Of a stretch of 64,000 nt of DNA, positions 6,145 through 25,110 are shown piece by piece. Source of the DNA: Gammaproteobacteria bacterium (GTDB lineage Bacteria; Pseudomonadota; Gammaproteobacteria; Acidiferrobacterales; SPGG2); assembly GCA_029861845.1 (NCBI GenBank), contig JAOTYM010000008.1, positions 773 through 64,772 of the forward strand, given 5' to 3'. Each line of letters starts with the position of its first letter. The stretch's first letter is position 1. The notes beneath the pieces are model-generated. The model did not search any database. It was not told where the DNA came from and worked only from the letters and a program-made list of their open reading frames with translations. The position numbers were made by a program, and so were the translations under genes.

Positions 6145-6221
6145 GGCTACGTAGCTCAGGTGGTTAGAGCACGGCACTCATAATGCCGGTGTCGGTGGTT
6201 CGAGTCCACCCGTAGCCACCA
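6145..6221 (+). tRNA. tRNA-Met (elongator, anticodon CAU)
   Basis: GGCTACGTAGCTCAGGTGGTTAGAGCA.. with anticodon arm CGGCA-CTCATAA-TGCCG, T-arm GGTTCGAGTCC and encoded CCA. It resembles E. coli metT-type elongator tRNA. Confidence 0.95.
6177..6202 (+). repeat. Direct repeat copy 1 (inside tRNA-Met, anticodon loop to T-arm); att-like core
   Basis: ctcataatGccggtgtcggtggttcg recurs at 24934-24959 with 25/26 identity in the same orientation. Confidence 0.8.
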
Positions 6222-16731: not shown

Positions 16732-16959
16732 ATGACCGCCCGTGTAAGTACGCTTTTCTTCCTCGTATTTCTCTCCCCAGCAGCCTCTGCCGATACCCTC
16801 ACCGGCAAGGTCCTCAAGATTACGGATGGCGATACCCTCTACGTCCTCGATGCCAATTATGAACAACACAAAATCCGTTTAGCCGGGATTGATGCGCCCG
16901 AACGAAAGCAGGCTTATGGATTGGCTTCTCGGAAACACTCAGCTTCGATAGTGGCGGGC
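16732..16959 (+). pseudogene. Thermonuclease gene, N-terminal part (copy C), truncated by an IS30-family remnant
   Basis: MTARVSTLFFLVFLSPAASADTLTGKVLKITDGDTLYVLDANYEQHKIRLAGIDAPERKQAYGLASRKHSASIVAG is a signal peptide plus the first SNase strands. Homology ends at about 16959, where the antisense IS30 transposase sequence begins. Confidence 0.75.
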
Positions 16960-17212
16960 GGATCGAACGGCCGGCGACCACCCCTCTCGATATCTCTTCA
17001 CGGGCTGACAGCGACAGACAACGCCTCAAACGCTTGCGCTCTGGTGGTCGTATCCCACCGGTCTGCGACAGGATGTTCTGAATTGATGAATGACTGCGGC
17101 CGAAATAACGACCAATCTCGTTTAAAGACTCGCCTTTCTGCCAGCGATCCCACATCAATGCTTTATCGGCTTCGGTGTAGTAAATCCTCGTCGGGTAGCC
17201 CATCTGCAACAT
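16957..17212 (-). mobile_element. IS30-family transposase, N-terminal HTH fragment (about 85 aa)
   Basis: MGYPTRIYYTEADKALMWDRWQKGESLNEIGRYFGRSHSSIQNIL..RLRRCLSLSAREEISRGVVAGRSIR matches the two-HTH N-terminus of IS30 transposases. The catalytic DDE part is absent. The IS end upstream of 17212 is not delimited. Confidence 0.65.
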
Positions 17213-17508
17213 CCTCCTCTCCGGTGGTAGAGTTTAGGTGTTGCATCCACCCATTGAGCCCGCAACCCAATCCGGACTTTCGCATAAGTGCCGCAAAGCC
17301 GACATTCGTCGCACATTCTAGTTTATTGAGCCCTGATAGTGGTGTCCGTATTTGCTAGAATGACACTCACCGCCGAATTGTTACAACTTTCAGATTACAT
17401 GAAGAAAATCCCGAAAACCTACGCCAATTTCAATATTGATAAATGGGGCGATAACGTTCGTTCCATTATCTGTTAGATATCCAATATTAAGGTGAAAGAG
17501 TAAGCACC

Positions 17509-18444: not shown

Positions 18445-18562
18445 GTGGTCGTGAAATCTAACAACAGCGTCGAGTACCGTCGGTGCATAAAACGCGCCGC
18501 CGCTCACGTCGGCTGTTAATACTAACGTCCGCTTTTTAATTCTCGATTGACCCCTTTTGGCC

Positions 18563-18613
18563 GAAGGACTAAACGGCTCGCGCGGTAACCGGTAGCGAGC
18601 GGTTTAGTCCTTC
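18563..18613. repeat. Long imperfect palindrome (19-bp arms, 13-nt loop)
   Basis: GAAGGACTAAACGGCTCGC-gcggtaaccggta-GCGAGCGGTTTAGTCCTTC has one mismatch. The flanks extend the pairing by about 4 bp. No T-tract follows. Confidence 0.6.
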
Positions 18614-18743
18614 GACCCCGAGCCGTCCTTCCACTTCGCGGGTTCCGATGCCCGTTTTCTTGGGTCGCCTGCAGTTGGACGATGCATATCGCCTGAATCT
18701 CCGTTATATTCAACCAGCTCCAACCTAAAGAGGAGGTATCAAA

Positions 18744-19589
18744 ATGTTCGGACGTGTGTTGCGGCAGCTTTCGTTAGTGATCGCGCTCTTACTGACGCTT
18801 GTGATCGCCGCTCCGGCTTCGGCCGTCGAGATGACGTTTTACGGTAATCAGCACTTCAAGTTCGTTTCCGATGAAGGCAAGGTCATCCTCATAAATCCCT
18901 GGGTCAAGGGTAACAAGGATGCCCCGATGACCCTCGATTCCTACAAAAAGGGCGACGTGGATTTGATTCTTACTACGTCGGGGCATGGAGATGACCAGGG
19001 CAACGCAGTCGAGATCGCGGCGCGTACCGGTGCAACCATCTTCACCGTGGCCGAGCTTGGGGGCTGGATGCAAAGCCAGATCGAGAAGTTCGGCGGCTCC
19101 AAGAAGCAGATTTACCGAGGTGCCATCAGCGGCCGTTATAAAGTGGGAAACGTCGCGGTGCAGCTTATTCAGGCCGCCCATGGCACCGGCATCAGCACCG
19201 GGAAGGAAGACCATCCCGCGGGTTACTACGGAGGACCGGCATCCGGTTCGGTGATTACCTTCGAGAGTGGCCTTAGGGTTTTGATGGCCGGCAGCACAGG
19301 GCTTTCCATGGAGTTGCAGCTTTTCGGCATGCGCTTTCAACCGCACGTCGCCTTGGTGCCGATCGCCGGACGGTTCATGATGCATCCGGACGACGCGGCC
19401 TTCGCCACCAAACTGCTGATGACCGACAACCCCAATCTCAAGACGGTTGTTCCGCAACACCACCGCATTAAGGGGCGCCCCTCATGGATGGGGACACCGG
19501 CTGAGTTCGAGGCGGAGATCAAGAAACTTGGGCTCAAGGTCAACGTGCTATCCCCGGAGGTTGGAAAGACCTACGCCCTATCCAAGTAA
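18744..19589 (+). CDS. Secreted MBL-fold metal-dependent hydrolase (UPF0173-like)
   Basis: Signal peptide ..LLLTLVIAAPASA, HGDD-type metal motif (LTTSGHGDDQGN), strong RBS aagaggagg. Confidence 0.75.
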   Translation: MFGRVLRQLSLVIALLLTLVIAAPASAVEMTFYGNQHFKFVSDEGKVILINPWVKGNKDAPMTLDSYKKGDVDLILTTSGHGDDQGNAVEIAARTGATIFTVAELGGWMQSQIEKFGGSKKQIYRGAISGRYKVGNVAVQLIQAAHGTGISTGKEDHPAGYYGGPASGSVITFESGLRVLMAGSTGLSMELQLFGMRFQPHVALVPIAGRFMMHPDDAAFATKLLMTDNPNLKTVVPQHHRIKGRPSWMGTPAEFEAEIKKLGLKVNVLSPEVGKTYALSK

Positions 19590-19905
19590 AGTCGAAGCCT
19601 GTTTTATGGCATCGTCGCCGGATGTAGTCAATGCCGGGCGATTTCCCCTATAGGGGAGACTCTTTTTGCAAGTGCCGGGATGGCACGTATCACACTACGC
19701 TGGAGCGCCTAGACTGAGCCAATCAACATAGTTGGCTGCAATGCCGGGTAGAGCCTCCCTTGCACGAAGCCGCGGCCGGACAGCGCAGGTGCGCGCGTTT
19801 ATTTCGCGGCCTTACCTGCCCCCTCGATCGCCTCGCCTGCCGCGGTGACCGACTCTGCGTGCTTACCCTGTTCGTGGAGCGCCTGTCGATTTGTTGAATA
19901 GAGGA

Positions 19906-20257
19906 ATGCATGTGAAAGCGATCGTATACACAAAATACGGACCACCGGATGTTCTTCAGCTCAAAGAGGTAGCAAAACCTATTCCTAAAGACAATGAAGT
20001 CTTGATAAGAATTCATGCGGCAACAGTAACAAAAGGGGACTTCAATGATAAGCAGCAAGAAAGTAATATTTGAGTTTGCAAGCTACAAGACTGAAGATTT
20101 AATTTTCCTCAAAGAGCTTATTGAGGCGGGAAAGCTAAAATCAGTCATAGATAGACGCTATCCGTTGGAACAAGTTGCCGAGGCTCACAGGTATGTCGAC
20201 AAAGGACACAAGAACGGGAATGTAGTCATAACTGTGGAAAACAATAGCAAAACCTAG
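19906..20257 (+). pseudogene. Zinc-type alcohol dehydrogenase / quinone oxidoreductase (MDR family) with a large internal deletion
   Basis: The N-terminal ~45 aa (V)[43 protein letters not shown] run almost directly into the C-terminal ~60 aa ..[39 protein letters not shown] in another frame. The Rossmann core is missing. Confidence 0.7.
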
Positions 20258-20263
20258 AAAATC

Positions 20264-20323
20264 GCTGCACCCAACCGCTATTCCGCTGCGCTTCATAGCG
20301 CCAGGTGAGCTTTGTCGTTATGA
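20264..20323 (+). repeat. attC-like site 1
   Basis: ACCCAAC (20269-20275) ... GTTATGA (20317-20323). Internal pairings are GCTGCACC/GGTGAGC and CGCTAT/ATAGCG. It starts 12 nt after the stop codon. Confidence 0.5.
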
Positions 20324-20509
20324 GTAAAGACAGACAAACTGAATCGGAGACAGTGGCTCAAGATAGGTTTTGGCGCTACTGCGGGTGCCATGTCAACTAA
20401 AATATTTGGTAGCGAGTCCACACAAGGAGAATGCCGAACAGCCCAATATAAAGCCATGGGCCCGTTTTACCCGAACCAACCCCAGCTCCAAACCGAAAAC
20501 ATTAAATGA
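20324..20509 (+). pseudogene. N-terminal remnant of a Tat-exported intradiol-dioxygenase-like protein
   Basis: The frame reads ..NRRQWLKIGFGATAGAMSTKIFGSESTQGECRTAQYKAMGPFYPNQPQ..: a twin-arginine signal plus a GPFYP motif. It has no proper start (ATG 20320 is in another frame) and ends overlapping the next gene's start. Confidence 0.4.
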
Positions 20510-20811
20510 ATAATAAAATTAAAATACCAGAAGAACGGAATGAGACGATAAGAGAGGAATTATTGAGGTGGCTAGAGGGAAGAGAGCTTGCAATTGGAGA
20601 GTTGTCCAAAGTGGTAGGTAAATCTGAAAAAGAGATTTACGATCATCTAGAACAACTTCAGAAGTCAGGGCTTCTTGTAATAATTCCCGCTGAATGTGGC
20701 AAATGTGATTATATATTCGAATCGCGTGAGAAAGTAAAAAAGCCTAGTAAATGTCCAAAATGTAAGAGTACCTATATACAACAACCATTATTTACTGTGT
20801 CGTCAAGATAA
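20506..20811 (+). CDS. Small transcriptional regulator: winged HTH fused to a C-terminal zinc ribbon
   Basis: REELLRWLEGRELAIGELSKVVGKSEKEIYDHLEQLQKSGLL is a wHTH, followed by CGKC..(17 aa)..CPKC. Confidence 0.6.
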   Translation: MNNKIKIPEERNETIREELLRWLEGRELAIGELSKVVGKSEKEIYDHLEQLQKSGLLVIIPAECGKCDYIFESREKVKKPSKCPKCKSTYIQQPLFTVSSR

Positions 20812-20912
20812 CAAGACGAATTAAGCCTAGCAATGCAATCGAAGACGGACCAGAACTTCCCCCCAAGTAGTGGACACCGCTGATGTGGGCGTTATAAAGC
20901 TCCGAGTTATGG
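20806..20912 (+). repeat. Possible attC-like site 2 (weak)
   Basis: AGATAAC overlaps the stop codon and GTTATGG overlaps the next start codon. Internal pairing is poor and an alternative R' GTTATAA lies at 20891. Confidence 0.3.
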
Positions 20913-21577
20913 AAAACTTTGAGCTGATTATTTTTGATTGCGATGGTGTTCTTGTTGATAGCGAGCGGGTTGCCAACGAAGTGTTTGCGAAGATATTGAA
21001 GGAAGAATGTGGATTTTCACTTAGCCTAGAAGATATGTTCGAAACGTTCGTTGGGCGCGCTGCCGGGCAGTGTATGGAAATTATAGAGGATATGCTCGGC
21101 GCCAAACCTCCTCCAGGCTTGGAAGTGCGTTATAGAAAAGATATAAATAAGGCATTAAAGGAATCCGTCACGGCCGTTAATGGCATTGAGCACGCGTTAG
21201 CCGAGATTTCGATTCCATACTGCGTGGCCTCAAGTGGCTCCTACGAAAAAATGCAAACCACATTAGGTAAAACTAAATTACTCGAACTCTTCGAGGGTAA
21301 GCTCTATAGTGCGTCAGACGTTGCGCGTGGAAAGCCATTCCCTGATATATACCTTCACGCGGCTGAAAGCATGGGTTGCTCGAGTCCTCGCAGATGCCTA
21401 GTCATTGAGGATAGCCCATTAGGGGTTGAAGGTGCCGTTGCCGCTGATATGGTGGTGTTTGGTTATGCAGAACTAGTGAAAGAGGAAAAGCTTATCAAAG
21501 CTGGTGCACACCATACTTTTAGCGATATGAGTAATTTGGCTCATGAGATTGCGACTTATGAACACGCTGCCTTATGA
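20909..21577 (+). CDS. HAD-superfamily hydrolase (subfamily IA, phosphatase / beta-phosphoglucomutase-like)
   Basis: Motif I FDCDGVLVDS, motif III K (GKPFPDIY) and motif IV (EDSPLGVEG). Confidence 0.85.
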   Translation: MENFELIIFDCDGVLVDSERVANEVFAKILKEECGFSLSLEDMFETFVGRAAGQCMEIIEDMLGAKPPPGLEVRYRKDINKALKESVTAVNGIEHALAEISIPYCVASSGSYEKMQTTLGKTKLLELFEGKLYSASDVARGKPFPDIYLHAAESMGCSSPRRCLVIEDSPLGVEGAVAADMVVFGYAELVKEEKLIKAGAHHTFSDMSNLAHEIATYEHAAL

Positions 21578-21637
21578 CAAACGGTTTAACAGGAGCGTCA
21601 CGAAGAACACGCCGCCCGGTTAACCGAGATGTTAGGC
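21569..21637 (+). repeat. attC-like site 3
   Basis: The 3' half GGTTAAC-CGAGAT-GTTAGGC is a classical L'-spacer-R'. The 5' partner CGGTTTAAC has one extra T. The R'' position is ambiguous because it overlaps the stop codon. Confidence 0.55.
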
Positions 21638-21707
21638 GAACATGAGAGGAGGAGCGGTGGCTAGGCGCTGCGCGATGCAGGCGAATCAGAGTTCACATCT
21701 CTAATGA

Positions 21708-22172
21708 ATGAAGGGGAAGGCGCTCGACCAGATGGCAGCGCAGGCGTACCAACGTGAGGAGGCGAAGATGAAATCCGACACCCGATGGCTACGAATTTCC
21801 TACTGGGCGGGTGCGATCATCGACGGACTCGCAGCAGTTTCAATGCTTGCCACAGCTATCTTCGGCGTTGGCGGCATGCTGTCGGGTTTCTCCCCGGGTG
21901 CCGAGTATCGATATGCCATGGGTCTTGGCGGCTCCCTGATGGCCGGATGGACCGCGCTGTTGATCTGGGCGGACAGAAAGCCATTGGAGAGGAAAGGCGT
22001 CCTTCTCCTGACAGTGTTCCCTGTAATAACGGGCATTGTGCTCACAGGAATCACGGCTGTTCTGGCCGGTCTCGTTCCTCTCTTCAAGATGCTGCCAGGG
22101 ATCATCGTACCGACAGTCGTGGGTGTTCTCATGACCTTCGCCTACCTGGACGCCAGGCAGACGCAAGAATGA
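21708..22172 (+). CDS. Hypothetical membrane protein (4 predicted TM segments)
   Basis: Hydrophobic segments WAGAIIDGLAAVSMLATAIFGV, GGSLMAGWTALLIW, VLLLTVFPVITGIVLTGITAVLAG and IIVPTVVGVLMTFAYL. The likely start is the internal ATG (MKSDTRW). No family recognised. Confidence 0.5.
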   Translation: MKGKALDQMAAQAYQREEAKMKSDTRWLRISYWAGAIIDGLAAVSMLATAIFGVGGMLSGFSPGAEYRYAMGLGGSLMAGWTALLIWADRKPLERKGVLLLTVFPVITGIVLTGITAVLAGLVPLFKMLPGIIVPTVVGVLMTFAYLDARQTQE

Positions 22173-22261
22173 GTAGCCCAAAGAAAGACGCCACAAGCTA
22201 TGCCGGCCCTGTGAGGCCGTCAGTGCATTGGGTGGAACCGGCTTGGTGCCATCGGCGATCC

Positions 22262-22332
22262 GCCAAACCAGGGGTTGCAGCTGACGGGGCCAGCGCCGAT
22301 CATAGCCCCGCAGCTAAACGCCGGCGTTACAT
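22262..22332 (+). repeat. attC-like site 4
   Basis: GCCAAAC-CAGGG-GTTGCAGCTGACGGGGC-(14 nt)-GCCCCGCAGCTAAAC-GCCGGC-GTTACAT. The long L-stem has extrahelical bases and 5/6-nt spacers. Confidence 0.65.
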
Positions 22333-22446
22333 TTGGATAGAAGAGAAATGGACAACTTGGCTGCAGATGGGACTTACTATTTCAGTTGAGTTGGCGCAAA
22401 TGATGAGAAGCACAGAGCGATATGCGAGATCTAGGAGATTCATTAA

Positions 22447-22839
22447 GGATATCTCTGCGCACACGCCATTTACAACCTAGCAGAGCGGAATATTGAAGGA
22501 GCGTCAATCAGTTCGTATGGAGAAGCTTTGTATTGGGGGGTAGCCGCATTTTCTACAGCCGGAATTGCTGATACGCCGATATCTGGTACTGCACAGTTAG
22601 TTGGTGGCTTATGGATTGTTCTTGGTTCAGTGTTGTTCTTCGGAACCATTGTAGCAACTGTTACGAGCTATTTTATGAGACCAATGCAGCGCCCTCATAA
22701 AAAGATAATTGAGACGATAGAGTACAACCTCGAACAGTTAGATGCTCTGACGCTCGACGAGCTCGATTTATTAAAGGAAACAGTTGACACACCGATCGTT
22801 CATGTCGAGCGCTTAAAGGAAAAACGGTCAAGCGGTTAG
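22447..22839 (+). pseudogene. Potassium-channel-like pore domain protein lacking TM1, with a degenerate selectivity filter
   Basis: ..AIYNLAERNIEGASISSYGEALYWGVAAFSTAGIADTPISGTAQLVGGLWIVLGSVLFFGTIVATV is a pore helix plus inner helix. The filter reads STAGIAD instead of T(V/I)GYGD. There is no ATG and only a TTG at 22528. Confidence 0.5.
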
Positions 22840-22909
22840 TCGAAGTCTAACATACCGCCTGTCGGAGGCTCTTGGCTCGCATGCTCACGATGCAATTGAA
22901 AGCGATGAA

Positions 22910-22999
22910 ACCTAACAAGCAGCTTGAGTTCGCGCGCTACACGCGCCGGAGCGGCAAAACGCTGCGTGCTTTACCGGCCGTTCAGCCTTCTTGTTGGTC
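22910..22999 (+). repeat. attC-like site 5
   Basis: ACCTAAC-AAGCA-GCTTGAGTTCG...CGTTCAGCC-TTCTT-GTTGGTC. An alternative longer version starts at GTCTAAC (22845). Confidence 0.6.
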
Positions 23000-23045
23000 G
23001 GGTGCCAAGTGCGCCAGACGCTGATGCTAGACCAAGGGGGCTGTA

Positions 23046-24026
23046 ATGAAAACGCCTGACATTCCACAAGAGGATGAAGCTCGACTCAAGACGCTTAGGT
23101 CACTCAAGATCTTGGATACCCCGCCAGAGGAACGTTTTGATCGTCTGACGCGGATGGCGAAGCGGATGTTCGAGGTGCCTATCGCACTTGTCAGCCTTGT
23201 TGATGAAAACCGTCAGTGGTTCAAGTCCTGTGTTGGTCTCCACGTTAGTGAAACACCACGAGATATTTCATTTTGTGGGCATGCTATTCTCGGTAACGAA
23301 ATATTCTTCATTCCCGACGCAACAAAGGACGAACGCTTTGCAGACAACCCACTGGTTTTGAATGAACCCAATGTTCGTTTTTATGCCGGATGCCCACTGA
23401 GATCCTTGAACGGGAGCAAACTAGGGACGCTGTGCATTATTGACCAGAAACCGCGACGTCTTAGCGAGCAAGACCTCGAAGCATTGAAAGACCTTGCATC
23501 AATGGTGGAGCGCGAACTTGCAGCAGTACAACTGGCGACACTAGACGAGCTTACCGATATAACAAACAGGAGAGGCTTTATGATGCTCGCCCAACACAGC
23601 CTTAACCTCAGTCGTCGACAGGGAATTCCTGCGTCGTTGGTTTTCTTCGACCTAAACGAATTCAAATTGATCAATGACAAGTTTGGGCACGCTGAGGGAG
23701 ATAGGGCATTAATTGCCTTTGCTGACCAAATGAAAAACGCGTTCCGTAATTCGGACCTCTTCGCGCGGCTAGGAGGCGATGAGTTCGTCGTATTGCTCAC
23801 CAATACATCAAAAAAAATCGCAGAGAACATTATCGCGAAATTTCAGCAGTCTTTAGAGGAATACAGTCAAGAAGTTAATCGCGGGTATAATATTTCGTTC
23901 TCTCATGGCATCGTCGAATTTAGTCCTGACAAGCACCATACGGTTGAAGCATTGCTGGCCGACGGGGACTGGCTGATGTATGAACACAAAAGGCAAAGCA
24001 GTAATGTTGACAGCGAAAGGGGTTAG
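23046..24026 (+). CDS. GAF-domain diguanylate cyclase (GGDEF)
   Basis: The N-terminal GAF-like domain (VSLVDENRQWFKS..FCGHAI..) is followed by a GGDEF domain with an intact RLGGDEFVVLL active site. Confidence 0.9.
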   Translation: MKTPDIPQEDEARLKTLRSLKILDTPPEERFDRLTRMAKRMFEVPIALVSLVDENRQWFKSCVGLHVSETPRDISFCGHAILGNEIFFIPDATKDERFADNPLVLNEPNVRFYAGCPLRSLNGSKLGTLCIIDQKPRRLSEQDLEALKDLASMVERELAAVQLATLDELTDITNRRGFMMLAQHSLNLSRRQGIPASLVFFDLNEFKLINDKFGHAEGDRALIAFADQMKNAFRNSDLFARLGGDEFVVLLTNTSKKIAENIIAKFQQSLEEYSQEVNRGYNISFSHGIVEFSPDKHHTVEALLADGDWLMYEHKRQSSNVDSERG

Positions 24027-24043
24027 TAGCCTTTCTGTGGTCT

Positions 24044-24115
24044 GTCCAACCAGTCATGCCAGCGGACTAACAAAAAACGTCGCTTTCTGCCGTCGGCGGA
24101 ATTAGAAAGTTATCC
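24044..24115 (+). repeat. attC-like site 6
   Basis: GTCCAAC-CAGTC-ATGCCAGCGGAC...GTCGGCGGAAT-TAGAAA-GTTATCC. Its R'' is complementary (6/7) to the R' of site 5. Confidence 0.6.
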
Positions 24116-24127
24116 AGCTAGAGAAAA

Positions 24128-24688
24128 ATGAGTAAAGAACGGATTTCAAACGCAACTCTCCTAATCATCGACGTACAGAAGGGATTTGACAACGAAATTT
24201 GGGGGACCCGTAACAATCTTGATATGGAGGCAAACCTCTCCAGAATACTCGAGCATTGGCGAGGCCTTGGTCGGGCTGTGGTACATGTTCAGCATTGCTC
24301 GGTCGAGCCGAATTCCCCTCTACGTCCGGGACTCCCCGGCTGCCAATTTAAGGACGAAGTGCGACCGATGGACGGCGAACCGGTTTACCAGAAGATCGTT
24401 AACAGTGCGTTCATTGGAACGACACTCGAAGAGGACCTCAAGAAGAGCGGAATTCGGGAGCTTATAATTGTCGGTTTGACTACGAATCATTGCATATCTA
24501 CGACTGCTCGGATGGCGGGCAACCTTGGATTTGAAACCTTCGTAGTGTCAGACGCAACAGCGACCTTTGATAGAATTGGACCGGACGGCACGCACTATTC
24601 TGCCGAACAGATCCACGAAATCTCTCTCGCCAGTTTACATAACGAATTCGCGACTGTAGTAGATACTGACTCGGTAATTGCGTCCTAA
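24128..24688 (+). CDS. Isochorismatase-family cysteine hydrolase
   Basis: LLIIDVQKGF (Asp), K in YQKIVNSAF, and Cys in GLTTNHCISTTAR. This is the typical isochorismatase/nicotinamidase triad. Confidence 0.85.
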   Translation: MSKERISNATLLIIDVQKGFDNEIWGTRNNLDMEANLSRILEHWRGLGRAVVHVQHCSVEPNSPLRPGLPGCQFKDEVRPMDGEPVYQKIVNSAFIGTTLEEDLKKSGIRELIIVGLTTNHCISTTARMAGNLGFETFVVSDATATFDRIGPDGTHYSAEQIHEISLASLHNEFATVVDTDSVIAS

Positions 24689-24694
24689 TACGCT

Positions 24695-24793
24695 GGATAA
24701 CAAAACTTTCGAGCGGATCACGTGTGATGACAAAAAAATCAGAGGAATAAATGTAGTTTTTCCTTGTGCCCTCACTCAAAATAACCGTTAGAT
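24695..24793 (+). repeat. attC-like site 7 (last recognisable)
   Basis: GGATAAC-AAAAC-TTTCGAG...CTCAAAA-TAACC-GTTAGAT. Its R'' is the exact reverse complement (7/7) of the R' of site 6. Confidence 0.65.
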
Positions 24794-24933
24794 GCCACGC
24801 CCAATCGTGAATATGAACCGCGCGGGACTTCTGCGGGAGCGAGCGGTCAAAGTACTGCAAGGTCTCGCAAATCGAGCAACGAGCGTCCCACGGTTTCTTC
24901 ACTAAATCACTATGCTACATTTTTTATTTTGCC

Positions 24934-24959
24934 CTCATAATACCGGTGTCGGTGGTTCG
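24934..24959 (+). repeat. Direct repeat copy 2 (partial tRNA-Met duplication); att-like island boundary
   Basis: ctcataatAccggtgtcggtggttcg is 25/26 identical to 6177-6202. The flanks on both sides do not match the tRNA. Confidence 0.8.
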
Positions 24960-25110
24960 TCTTGGCGCTGTGCTGTCCTGCTGCGCGCCAGGGTGCAGGG
25001 CGCAAATCCCCGTCGCCACCACTTATCTCACCAATATTGCCGTCAGCGATGTTAGTAGCAATTGTAGGTTTGGTGGTGGCGTCGCAACGTGGCCAGGACC
25101 TCTGCCAGCC

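Follow-up and report, generated by a model that had tools for sequence, protein, structure and literature searches.

The window analyzed here is a 64,000-nucleotide stretch of contig JAOTYM010000008.1, from a gammaproteobacterium of the order Acidiferrobacterales. Between positions 17472 and 24793 its plus strand carries what we consider, with a probability of about 0.82, to be a sedentary array of integron gene cassettes, about eight or nine in number, which is decaying and is accompanied by no integrase within the window; such an arrangement corresponds to a cluster of attC sites lacking integron-integrase (CALIN), as defined by Cury et al. 2016 (IntegronFinder; PMC4889954). A sequence-only reading, made by a model from the letters of the stretch, had already interpreted this region as an integron cassette array devoid of an integrase, and the present analysis supports that interpretation. 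Each unit would consist of one promoterless open reading frame (ORF) followed by an attC recombination site, and the units were most likely inserted one by one by a tyrosine recombinase of the IntI type, working on the folded attC bottom strand, with crossover at G|TT. The integrase and the attI site would later have been lost, the likeliest way being a rearrangement associated with an IS30-family insertion sequence (IS); decay is visible in pseudogene cassettes, the loss of the attC body at one junction, lesions in R'' boxes and further lesions in other strains.

attC sites and covariance models

Class 1 integron loci were gathered from plasmids and metagenomes using IntI1 as query. A first covariance model, R1, was seeded with 17 curated attC sites, hand-trimmed to the R''-spacer-L'' and L'-spacer-R' segments and without trained insertions. 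With cmsearch it found 80 sites across 86 class 1 loci; of these, 79 lie beside intI1, all on the cassette strand, and the sole plus-strand match in these loci is the oppositely oriented blaOXA-1 cassette of locus L088. In the window R1 detected no full-length site, and it was judged too narrow, since it penalises long central regions. A second model, R2, was therefore derived from the 80 class 1 attC sites recovered by R1, and the window was searched with filters off. A metagenome scan with an IntI alignment returned class 1 integrons only, thus the model was not broadened with chromosomal attC sites.

R2 gave five full-length matches in the window, all on the plus strand within 18.4-24.8 kb and each downstream of an ORF; they are spaced by 0.65-2.0 kb, and their E values become 0.0018-1.0 when they are scored for the 8.6-kb region. 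The other four window matches with E below 10 are stubs made of the R box only, and the rest of the window contains no full-length match. In 100 kb of unrelated control loci, also searched with filters off, one stub and zero full-length matches were found, while in a search of 1.48 Mb with default filters the site at 18456-18521 ranked first with 19.4 bits, the best control match reaching 15.6 bits. Since the controls are clean, the cluster of five matches on one strand within 6.4 kb is not a chance event. With R2, although not with the model and thresholds of IntegronFinder, the region thus shows at least two covariance-model attC sites that share a strand and are separated by under 4 kb.

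Eight sites emerge when the geometry of class 1 sites is imposed, that is an R'' box of 7 nt, a spacer of 5, an L'' box of 8 with one extra base, a variable centre, an L' box of 7, a spacer of 6 and an R' box of 7. Seven of the eight sites follow this canonical 7-5-8...7-6-7 spacing, extra base in L'' included, and have the L box paired at 5/7 or better, for which chance is about 0.013 per site. The sites are 66-99 nt long and heterogeneous, with 35-55% pairwise identity over the boxes:

18456-18521 (66 nt), plus strand: attC A0, the best attC in the window; ATCTAAC-AACAG-CGTCGAGT...GCTCACG-TCGGCT-GTTAATA; L box 6/7; R2 match with 19.4 bits, window E 0.014
20252-20323 (72 nt), plus strand: attC A1; L box 7/7 (GCTGCACC / GGTGAGC); R' GTTATGA; R'' decayed (ACCTAGA); R2 match with 8.8 bits, window E 7.5
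20806-20897, plus strand: degenerate junction S1; R'' AGATAAC, R' GTTATAA; L box 1/7; no hairpin, fold z +0.5; no R2 match
21572-21637 (66 nt), plus strand: attC S2; TTATGAC-AAACG-GTTTAACA...GGTTAAC-CGAGAT-GTTAGGC; L box 6/7; bottom-strand hairpin with z -2.1
22262-22332 (71 nt), plus strand: attC S3; GCCAAAC-CAGGG-GTTGCAGC...GCTAAAC-GCCGGC-GTTACAT; L box 6/7; R2 match at 22262-22330 with 11.0 bits, window E 2.1
22910-22999 (90 nt), plus strand: attC-like S4; ACCTAAC-AAGCA-GCTTGAGT...GTTCAGC-CTTCTT-GTTGGTC; L box 5/7 plus two G-T pairs; end-to-end bottom-strand hairpin
24044-24115 (72 nt), plus strand: attC S5; GTCCAAC-CAGTC-ATGCCAGC...GCGGAAT-TAGAAA-GTTATCC; L box 5/7; R2 match with 11.4 bits, window E 1.6
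24695-24793 (99 nt), plus strand: attC S6, the last of the array; GGATAAC-AAAAC-TTTCGAGC...ACTCAAA-ATAACC-GTTAGAT; L box 6/7; R2 match with 17.2 bits, window E 0.052

All the R'' and R' boxes quoted by the sequence-only reading are present where it had placed them. Its description of an imperfect palindrome after each ORF is true only in part: in their array form few of the sites give an end-to-end fold, the L box at 20806-20897 is paired at only 1/7, and no site is recognisable after the ORF coding for a hydrolase of the MBL fold. Junction S1 is structurally not an attC, and only its R' end (GTTATAA, 20891), which matches the next R'' at 6/7, is validated as a boundary. The site after the HAD-family gene does not start at GACAAAC, as had been read, but at 21572 (TTATGAC): here the conserved AAC of R'' is now GAC and overlaps the HAD stop codon, the site being otherwise canonical, and this mutation is the reason why S2 was missed by R2. 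In the strain variant represented by contig L174, S5 reaches an R2 score of 13.6 bits.

Crossover signature and folding

In integron recombination strand exchange occurs at G|TT. The last six bases of an R' box are thus given to the next cassette, and each R'' is expected to pair with the preceding R' rather than with the R' of its own site; equivalently, the first six bases of a cassette (TTNNNN) are complementary to the R'' at the 3' end of the same cassette. This is what the array shows. For sites A0, A1 and S1 to S6, the complementarity of R'' to the preceding R' is 7, 2, 5, 6, 6, 5, 6 and 7 of 7 positions, versus 4, 3, 5, 3, 3, 4, 4 and 4 for the R' of the same site. At the four variable positions of the eight sites, 23/32 match the preceding R' and 9/32 the own R'; when R' boxes were permuted among sites, 23 matches were reached in 0.027% of trials (P = 2.7e-4). 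Two cassettes are perfect, namely those of the nitrilase (GTTAGAT at 17472 and ATCTAAC at 18456) and of the isochorismatase (GTTATCC at 24109 and GGATAAC at 24695). The counts given earlier for GTTATCC/GGATAAC (7/7), GTTGGTC/GTCCAAC (6/7) and GTTAGGC/GCCAAAC (6/7) were reproduced, and the complementarity, whose disappearance under an objective calling of the sites would have counted against that reading, does persist; the 17472/18456 pair and the pair formed by GTTATAA (20891) and TTATGAC (21572), the latter at 6/7, are new. The crossover signature also rescued sites that R2 had missed. A scan based on regular expressions and geometry, in which R'' had to pair with its own R', proved unsuited to an array whose cassettes are unrelated, and it was discarded.

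The form that each site takes in the circular cassette was then rebuilt in silico, its bottom strand was folded with DNA parameters, and the mean pairing probability of the R box was read. From the array to the circular form this value rises from 0.03 to 0.72 for A0, from 0.21 to 0.96 for S6, from 0 to 0.48 for S5 and from 0 to 0.39 for S3; for six real attC sites the test returned 0.19-0.88. Thus, the poor folding of the sites within the array is explained by the fact that the partner of each R'' is the preceding R', and that the pair is restored only in the circular form. The GC skew of the window is positive, and on this basis we presume that, as in the sedentary chromosomal integrons, it is probably the leading-strand template that carries the attC bottom strands.

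Array extent and cassette genes

The sequence-only reading had rightly recognised a cassette array, which it delimited at 19893-24793; the true start is at 17472, about 2.4 kb further upstream, and the array includes a nitrilase cassette. The boundary was moved because the best attC, A0, comes after the nitrilase ORF and hence lies outside the earlier interval. All credible ORFs between 17.5 and 24.7 kb are on the plus strand and have unrelated functions according to Pfam, as had been noticed for the ORFs of 19.9-24.8 kb. The boundary and the ORFs are the following:

17472-17478, plus strand: GTTAGAT, first recognisable cassette boundary (R' box); 7/7 complementary to the R'' ATCTAAC at 18456 and 30 nt before the nitrilase start codon
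17509-18444, plus strand: carbon-nitrogen hydrolase of the nitrilase family, cassette ORF (PF00795, E 2e-52)
18744-19589, plus strand: MBL-fold hydrolase ORF (Pfam); no recognisable attC after it, cassette status uncertain
19891-20257, plus strand: MDR/zinc-dehydrogenase pseudogene in two overlapping ORFs; PF13602 (ADH_zinc_N_2 fragment) on the C-terminal ORF 20045-20257 only
20506-20811, plus strand: PF0610-like winged-helix regulator with Zn-ribbon, cassette ORF (Pfam)
20909-21577, plus strand: HAD-family hydrolase, cassette ORF (Pfam; also a gene call in L001)
21708-22172, plus strand: small protein without Pfam family, cassette ORF (Pfam scan and homolog search); it corresponds to the putative four-transmembrane protein of the earlier reading
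22483-22839, plus strand: probable ion-channel pore pseudogene, preceded by an in-frame stop
23046-24026, plus strand: GAF-GGDEF diguanylate cyclase, cassette ORF (Pfam)
24128-24688, plus strand: isochorismatase-family hydrolase, cassette ORF (Pfam)

The validated cassette units are 574-1116 nt long, and part of the array has a GC content (0.42 at 20-21 kb, 0.48 at 23-24 kb) below that of its flanks. Promoter-like sites are at chance level, 7 versus 8.0 +/- 2.9 in shuffled sequences, in agreement with the previous description of the ORFs as mostly promoterless. In the zinc-dehydrogenase pseudogene the N-terminal ORF (19891-20073) has no Pfam family and the middle of the protein is apparently missing; its candidate boundary GTTGAAT at 19893 matches only at 2/7 and is not validated. 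The gene previously described as a K-channel pore relic has only sub-threshold matches to Ion_trans and Ion_trans_2 (E 0.006-0.02). The protein encoded by 21708-22172 is a member of a large family that is uncharacterised (836 homologs with E below 1e-5), and one source labels a 99%-identical homolog as an FtsH-binding integral membrane protein. Elsewhere, homologs of this ORF (in L179 and in the contig of P0126) adjoin membrane enzymes similar to ICMT/PEMT or to Rce1, of the CAAX-protease type, a neighbourhood that hints at a shared context of membrane-protein processing.

The leader of the MBL-fold ORF, between attC A0 and the ORF, contains a strong, near-perfect palindrome on the plus strand (18562-18614, GAAGGACTAAACGGCTCGC...GCGAGCGGTTTAGTCCTTC), with a DNA fold of -23.4 kcal/mol and a z of -3.1, lacking a T-run and an Rfam match; on the other side, beyond a terminator-like hairpin, positions 19660-19892 are about 230 nt of GC-rich non-coding sequence with no recognisable attC.

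The 5' end of the array and the missing integrase

No integrase gene accompanies the cassettes: tblastn with IntI1 against the 64-kb window gave nothing at E below 1, and a Pfam scan of 28 window ORFs revealed no Phage_integrase domain. Upstream of 17472 no attC or attI body could be recognised by eye, so that the absence of intI and attI described earlier stands; the window has no complete integron, which would comprise intI with the IntI-specific insertion, an adjacent attI and a cassette promoter (Pc). Just upstream of the array lies the remnant of a mobile element:

16820-17212, minus strand: relic of an IS30-family transposase, with the N-terminal HTH_38 only (Pfam)

As this relic abuts the 5' end of the array, we consider an IS-mediated rearrangement at this place as the likeliest route by which intI and attI would have been lost. 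Cury et al. 2016 (PMC4889954) indicate integrase loss, rearrangement and secondary-site integration as the routes leading to CALINs, and report recognisable intI pseudogenes near only 5% of them.

The IS30 relic interrupts an ORF for a secreted SNase-like protein (16699 to about 16980, plus strand), and the identity between the window and the metagenome contig ERZ28013244 breaks off at 17124, which a repeated element would be expected to cause. At the edge of the relic, about 110 nt upstream of the first cassette boundary, a promoter-like match is found on the plus strand at 17333-17361 (CTGATA-17-TAGAAT with an extended TG); it is the only one placed to read into the array and could act as a substitute for Pc.

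Strain variation and decay

Apart from the S2 junction, cassette order is constant in metagenome contigs from five samples. Contigs L174, L175 and L178 (JGI samples 3300041077, 3300041080 and 3300041086) are 99.8% identical to the window rightwards of 21625 and unrelated to it leftwards; the breakpoint falls 6-7 nt 5' of the G|TT in S2. In this strain the cassette of ORF 21708-22172 is thus preceded by a different sequence, which fits an exchange at the level of cassettes. The breakpoint is the only hint, and an indirect one, that the sites may serve as substrates of IntI; it is no proof of IntI action, because the shared sequence includes the 6-nt spacer.

Decay is visible in the window itself, where two cassettes are pseudogenes, in line with the earlier remark that several cassettes are decayed, S1 is devoid of an attC body, the R'' of S2 has lost its AAC and that of A1 is degraded. 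The three contigs of the variant strain carry in addition a frame-shifting deletion of 184 nt in the GAF part of the GGDEF gene (window 23119-23302), and their isochorismatase gene call is shortened to 106 aa. These two lesions indicate that decay is continuing and takes a different course from strain to strain. At present the array is largely inert; what capacity any of its sites may retain to recombine in trans is, like the route of integrase loss, something that we infer.

Genomic setting

The array occupies the distal end of a genomic island adjoining a tRNA gene, as the sequence-only reading had proposed, and the ends of the island are marked by two features:

6145-6221, plus strand: tRNA-Met (CAT), left end of the island (ARAGORN, Rfam)
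24934-24959, plus strand: direct repeat of the segment from anticodon loop to T-arm of the tRNA-Met, right-end scar of the island (blastn, 26 nt, 96%, one mismatch)

The closest genome is an Acidiferrobacterales metagenome-assembled genome (L005), with 82-91% DNA identity across the shared core genes. In L005 the tRNA copy at the corresponding position, immediately upstream of the same genes for MFS and HerA, is longer (51 nt, up to the 3' end of the tRNA), and the roughly 110 nt in front of it share 80% identity with window 24822-24930. Because of the repeat at 24934-24959 and of this longer copy, the 18.7 kb from 6222 to about 24930 are an insertion, with tRNA-Met at one end and a partial repeat of this tRNA at the other. 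Following the tRNA, the first ORFs code for a methyltransferase and for PhoU (Pfam). No tyrosine or serine integrase adjoins the tRNA, and no recombinase was detected anywhere in the 64-kb window. Over positions 17124-38199 the window matches a metagenome contig of 97 kb (ERZ28013244) with 100% identity. In more distant relatives (L006-L012) there is no tRNA next to HerA. The Rfam scan of the window returned two tRNAs at the gathering threshold and nothing else.

As to an empty site in a close relative, the contig of L005 begins only 270 nt left of the tRNA repeat, where its sequence is already similar to the island end. The conserved sequence at the right-end scar (24822-24930 in the window, 161-270 in L005) encodes in both genomes the same minus-strand N-terminus, MKKPWDARC.IC.TLQ; the ORF starts at window position 24902, diverges or stops after the shared N-terminus and has no Pfam match, so that these approximately 110 nt may be the stump of an island gene. 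Between two fragments of the tRNA-Met 3' end, L005 carries at 300-960 about 625 nt of GC-rich, internally repetitive sequence, where the window (24960-25030) has only about 50 nt; this difference in length suggests scars of repeated insertion or excision at tRNA-Met.

Alternative explanations

Several observations weigh against the interpretation of the region as a cassette array. R2 is a home-made model trained only on attC sites of class 1 cassettes; only two of its matches have a window E below 0.1, no site but the best would keep an E of about 1 at the scale of a whole genome, and S2 and S4, whose R'' positions were picked partly by eye under the guidance of the geometry, were missed. In array form most sites fold no better than shuffled sequences, and S1 does not resemble an attC. 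After the MBL-fold ORF, no attC with the expected R'' TATTAAC or with a matching L box was found in 19590-19892 by model, geometry or eye, and an intrinsic-terminator-like hairpin with a T-run is located on the plus strand at 19642-19659, 53 nt 3' of the ORF. The closest homolog of ORF 21708-22172 with readable DNA (81% identity, L179) lies between an ICMT-like gene and a gene for an extracytoplasmic function (ECF) sigma factor and has no attC around it; a second homolog, next to an Rce1-like gene, gives no support to the cassette interpretation either. Finally, the sequence shared at the strain breakpoint includes the 6-nt spacer (CGAGAT) upstream of G|TT, which is not exactly the canonical crossover, and the breakpoint could equally derive from homologous recombination or from related attC sites.

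Some of these points would suit an ordinary cluster of co-directional genes within the island, whose AAC...GTT motifs and hairpins would be due to chance, to terminators or to elements of the repetitive extragenic palindromic (REP) type. Indeed, relaxed NNNNAAC...GTTNNNN pairs are common, the strict-geometry scan that required own-R' pairing showed no regional enrichment (3/30 plus-strand candidates), several sites fold as shuffles do, R1 gave no full-length match in the window, and a hairpin of the terminator type follows the MBL-fold ORF. Such a cluster is nevertheless highly improbable, since R2 found five full-length matches on one strand in 6.4 kb and none in about 320 kb of other sequence at the same sensitivity, and since the L-box geometry of seven out of eight sites and the complementarity to the preceding R' (P = 2.7e-4) would have to be accidental; furthermore, a weak own-R' pairing is the expectation for real arrays of unrelated cassettes.

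Other explanations accept the cassettes and concern their integrase. The array could be part of a split integron that is still functional, shuffled in trans by an integrase encoded elsewhere in the genome or on another replicon; about half of CALINs are found in replicons encoding IntI (Cury et al. 2016, PMC4889954), three or four sites of the array have near-canonical boxes, and strains differ at the S2 junction. We regard this as rather unlikely, because cassette order is otherwise the same in all the metagenome contigs recovered from five samples, pseudogenes and degraded sites are accumulating, and the strain breakpoint is not exactly at G|TT. Alternatively, an integrase whose gene lies elsewhere may have placed the cassettes at a secondary, non-att site of the genome, attI and intI never having been adjacent. 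Secondary-site integration is a documented route to CALINs (PMC4889954), a 2022 preprint reports integrase-catalysed cassette insertion outside att sites (10.1101/2022.09.11.507474), and neither an attI-like site nor an intI pseudogene was seen upstream of 17472; however, an IS30 relic that truncates a neighbour gene at the 5' end fits a rearrangement that removed the upstream sequence, and the loss of a single gene seems likelier than a series of eight or nine insertions at the same secondary site, so that we hold this origin to be quite improbable. A sedentary array that has lost its integrase and is decaying thus remains the preferred interpretation.

Comparison with known integrons

Like the CALINs described so far, the array is made of attC sites on the same strand, less than 4 kb apart and with no intI within 10 kb; its cassettes carry no resistance genes and several of them are poorly characterised, its attC sites are heterogeneous, an IS adjoins it, and in size it comes near the mean reported for them, about 5 sites (PMC4889954). 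It differs in that its sites were called with a home-made model, several of them being degraded below model detection, and in its location inside a tRNA-bounded insertion.

With class 1 arrays, such as those containing aadA1, cmlA5, blaVIM and blaOXA cassettes, it shares the architecture and spacing of attC and the orientation of the units, in which the ORF precedes its attC; in addition, the L'' box of the site at 22262 is identical to the L'' of two metagenomic class 1 cassettes. Class 1 loci also contain a GGDEF-type ORF (L114, 106-573) and an isochorismatase-type ORF (L136, 443-985), with about 30% identity to the window proteins; these two ORFs lie on the cassette side and strand of intI1, downstream of an attC called by the model, and represent similar functional classes, not the same cassettes. 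Conversely, the array is devoid of intI1, attI1, Pc, the 3' conserved segment and resistance genes, its boxes are 45-68% identical to the class 1 consensus, and it is chromosomal and stable across samples.

The sedentary chromosomal integrons, for instance the Vibrio superintegrons, resemble it in their chromosomal location, in the presence of several poorly characterised cassettes and in their stability across related strains; unlike them, the array is small, with about eight or nine cassettes, has heterogeneous attC sites, lacks an integrase and is visibly decaying.

Significance

CALINs have been known to be abundant in bacterial genomes since 2016, and the array opens no new question; the functions of its cassettes (nitrilase, HAD hydrolase, GGDEF cyclase, isochorismatase, a small regulator and a small protein of no family) are likewise unremarkable. 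A further scenario, which we think unlikely, would have an integrase from elsewhere in this uncultured Acidiferrobacterales-like lineage still exchanging the cassettes within the population, with the tRNA-Met island as the vehicle of the array. If this were true, the island would move the whole array between genomes, coupling mobility at the level of the island with mobility at the level of the cassette, and the strain variant at the R' box of S2 would be the trace of a recent exchange.

The main value of the array is that of a clean and checkable example: raw sequence is enough to recognise an orphan array of cassettes, although several of its attC sites have decayed below the thresholds of a model. 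It also adds a cassette array to a poorly sampled, uncultured gammaproteobacterial lineage resembling sulfur and iron oxidisers, and it illustrates one likely route to CALINs, that is the insertion of an IS at the 5' end of the array together with the loss of the integrase.

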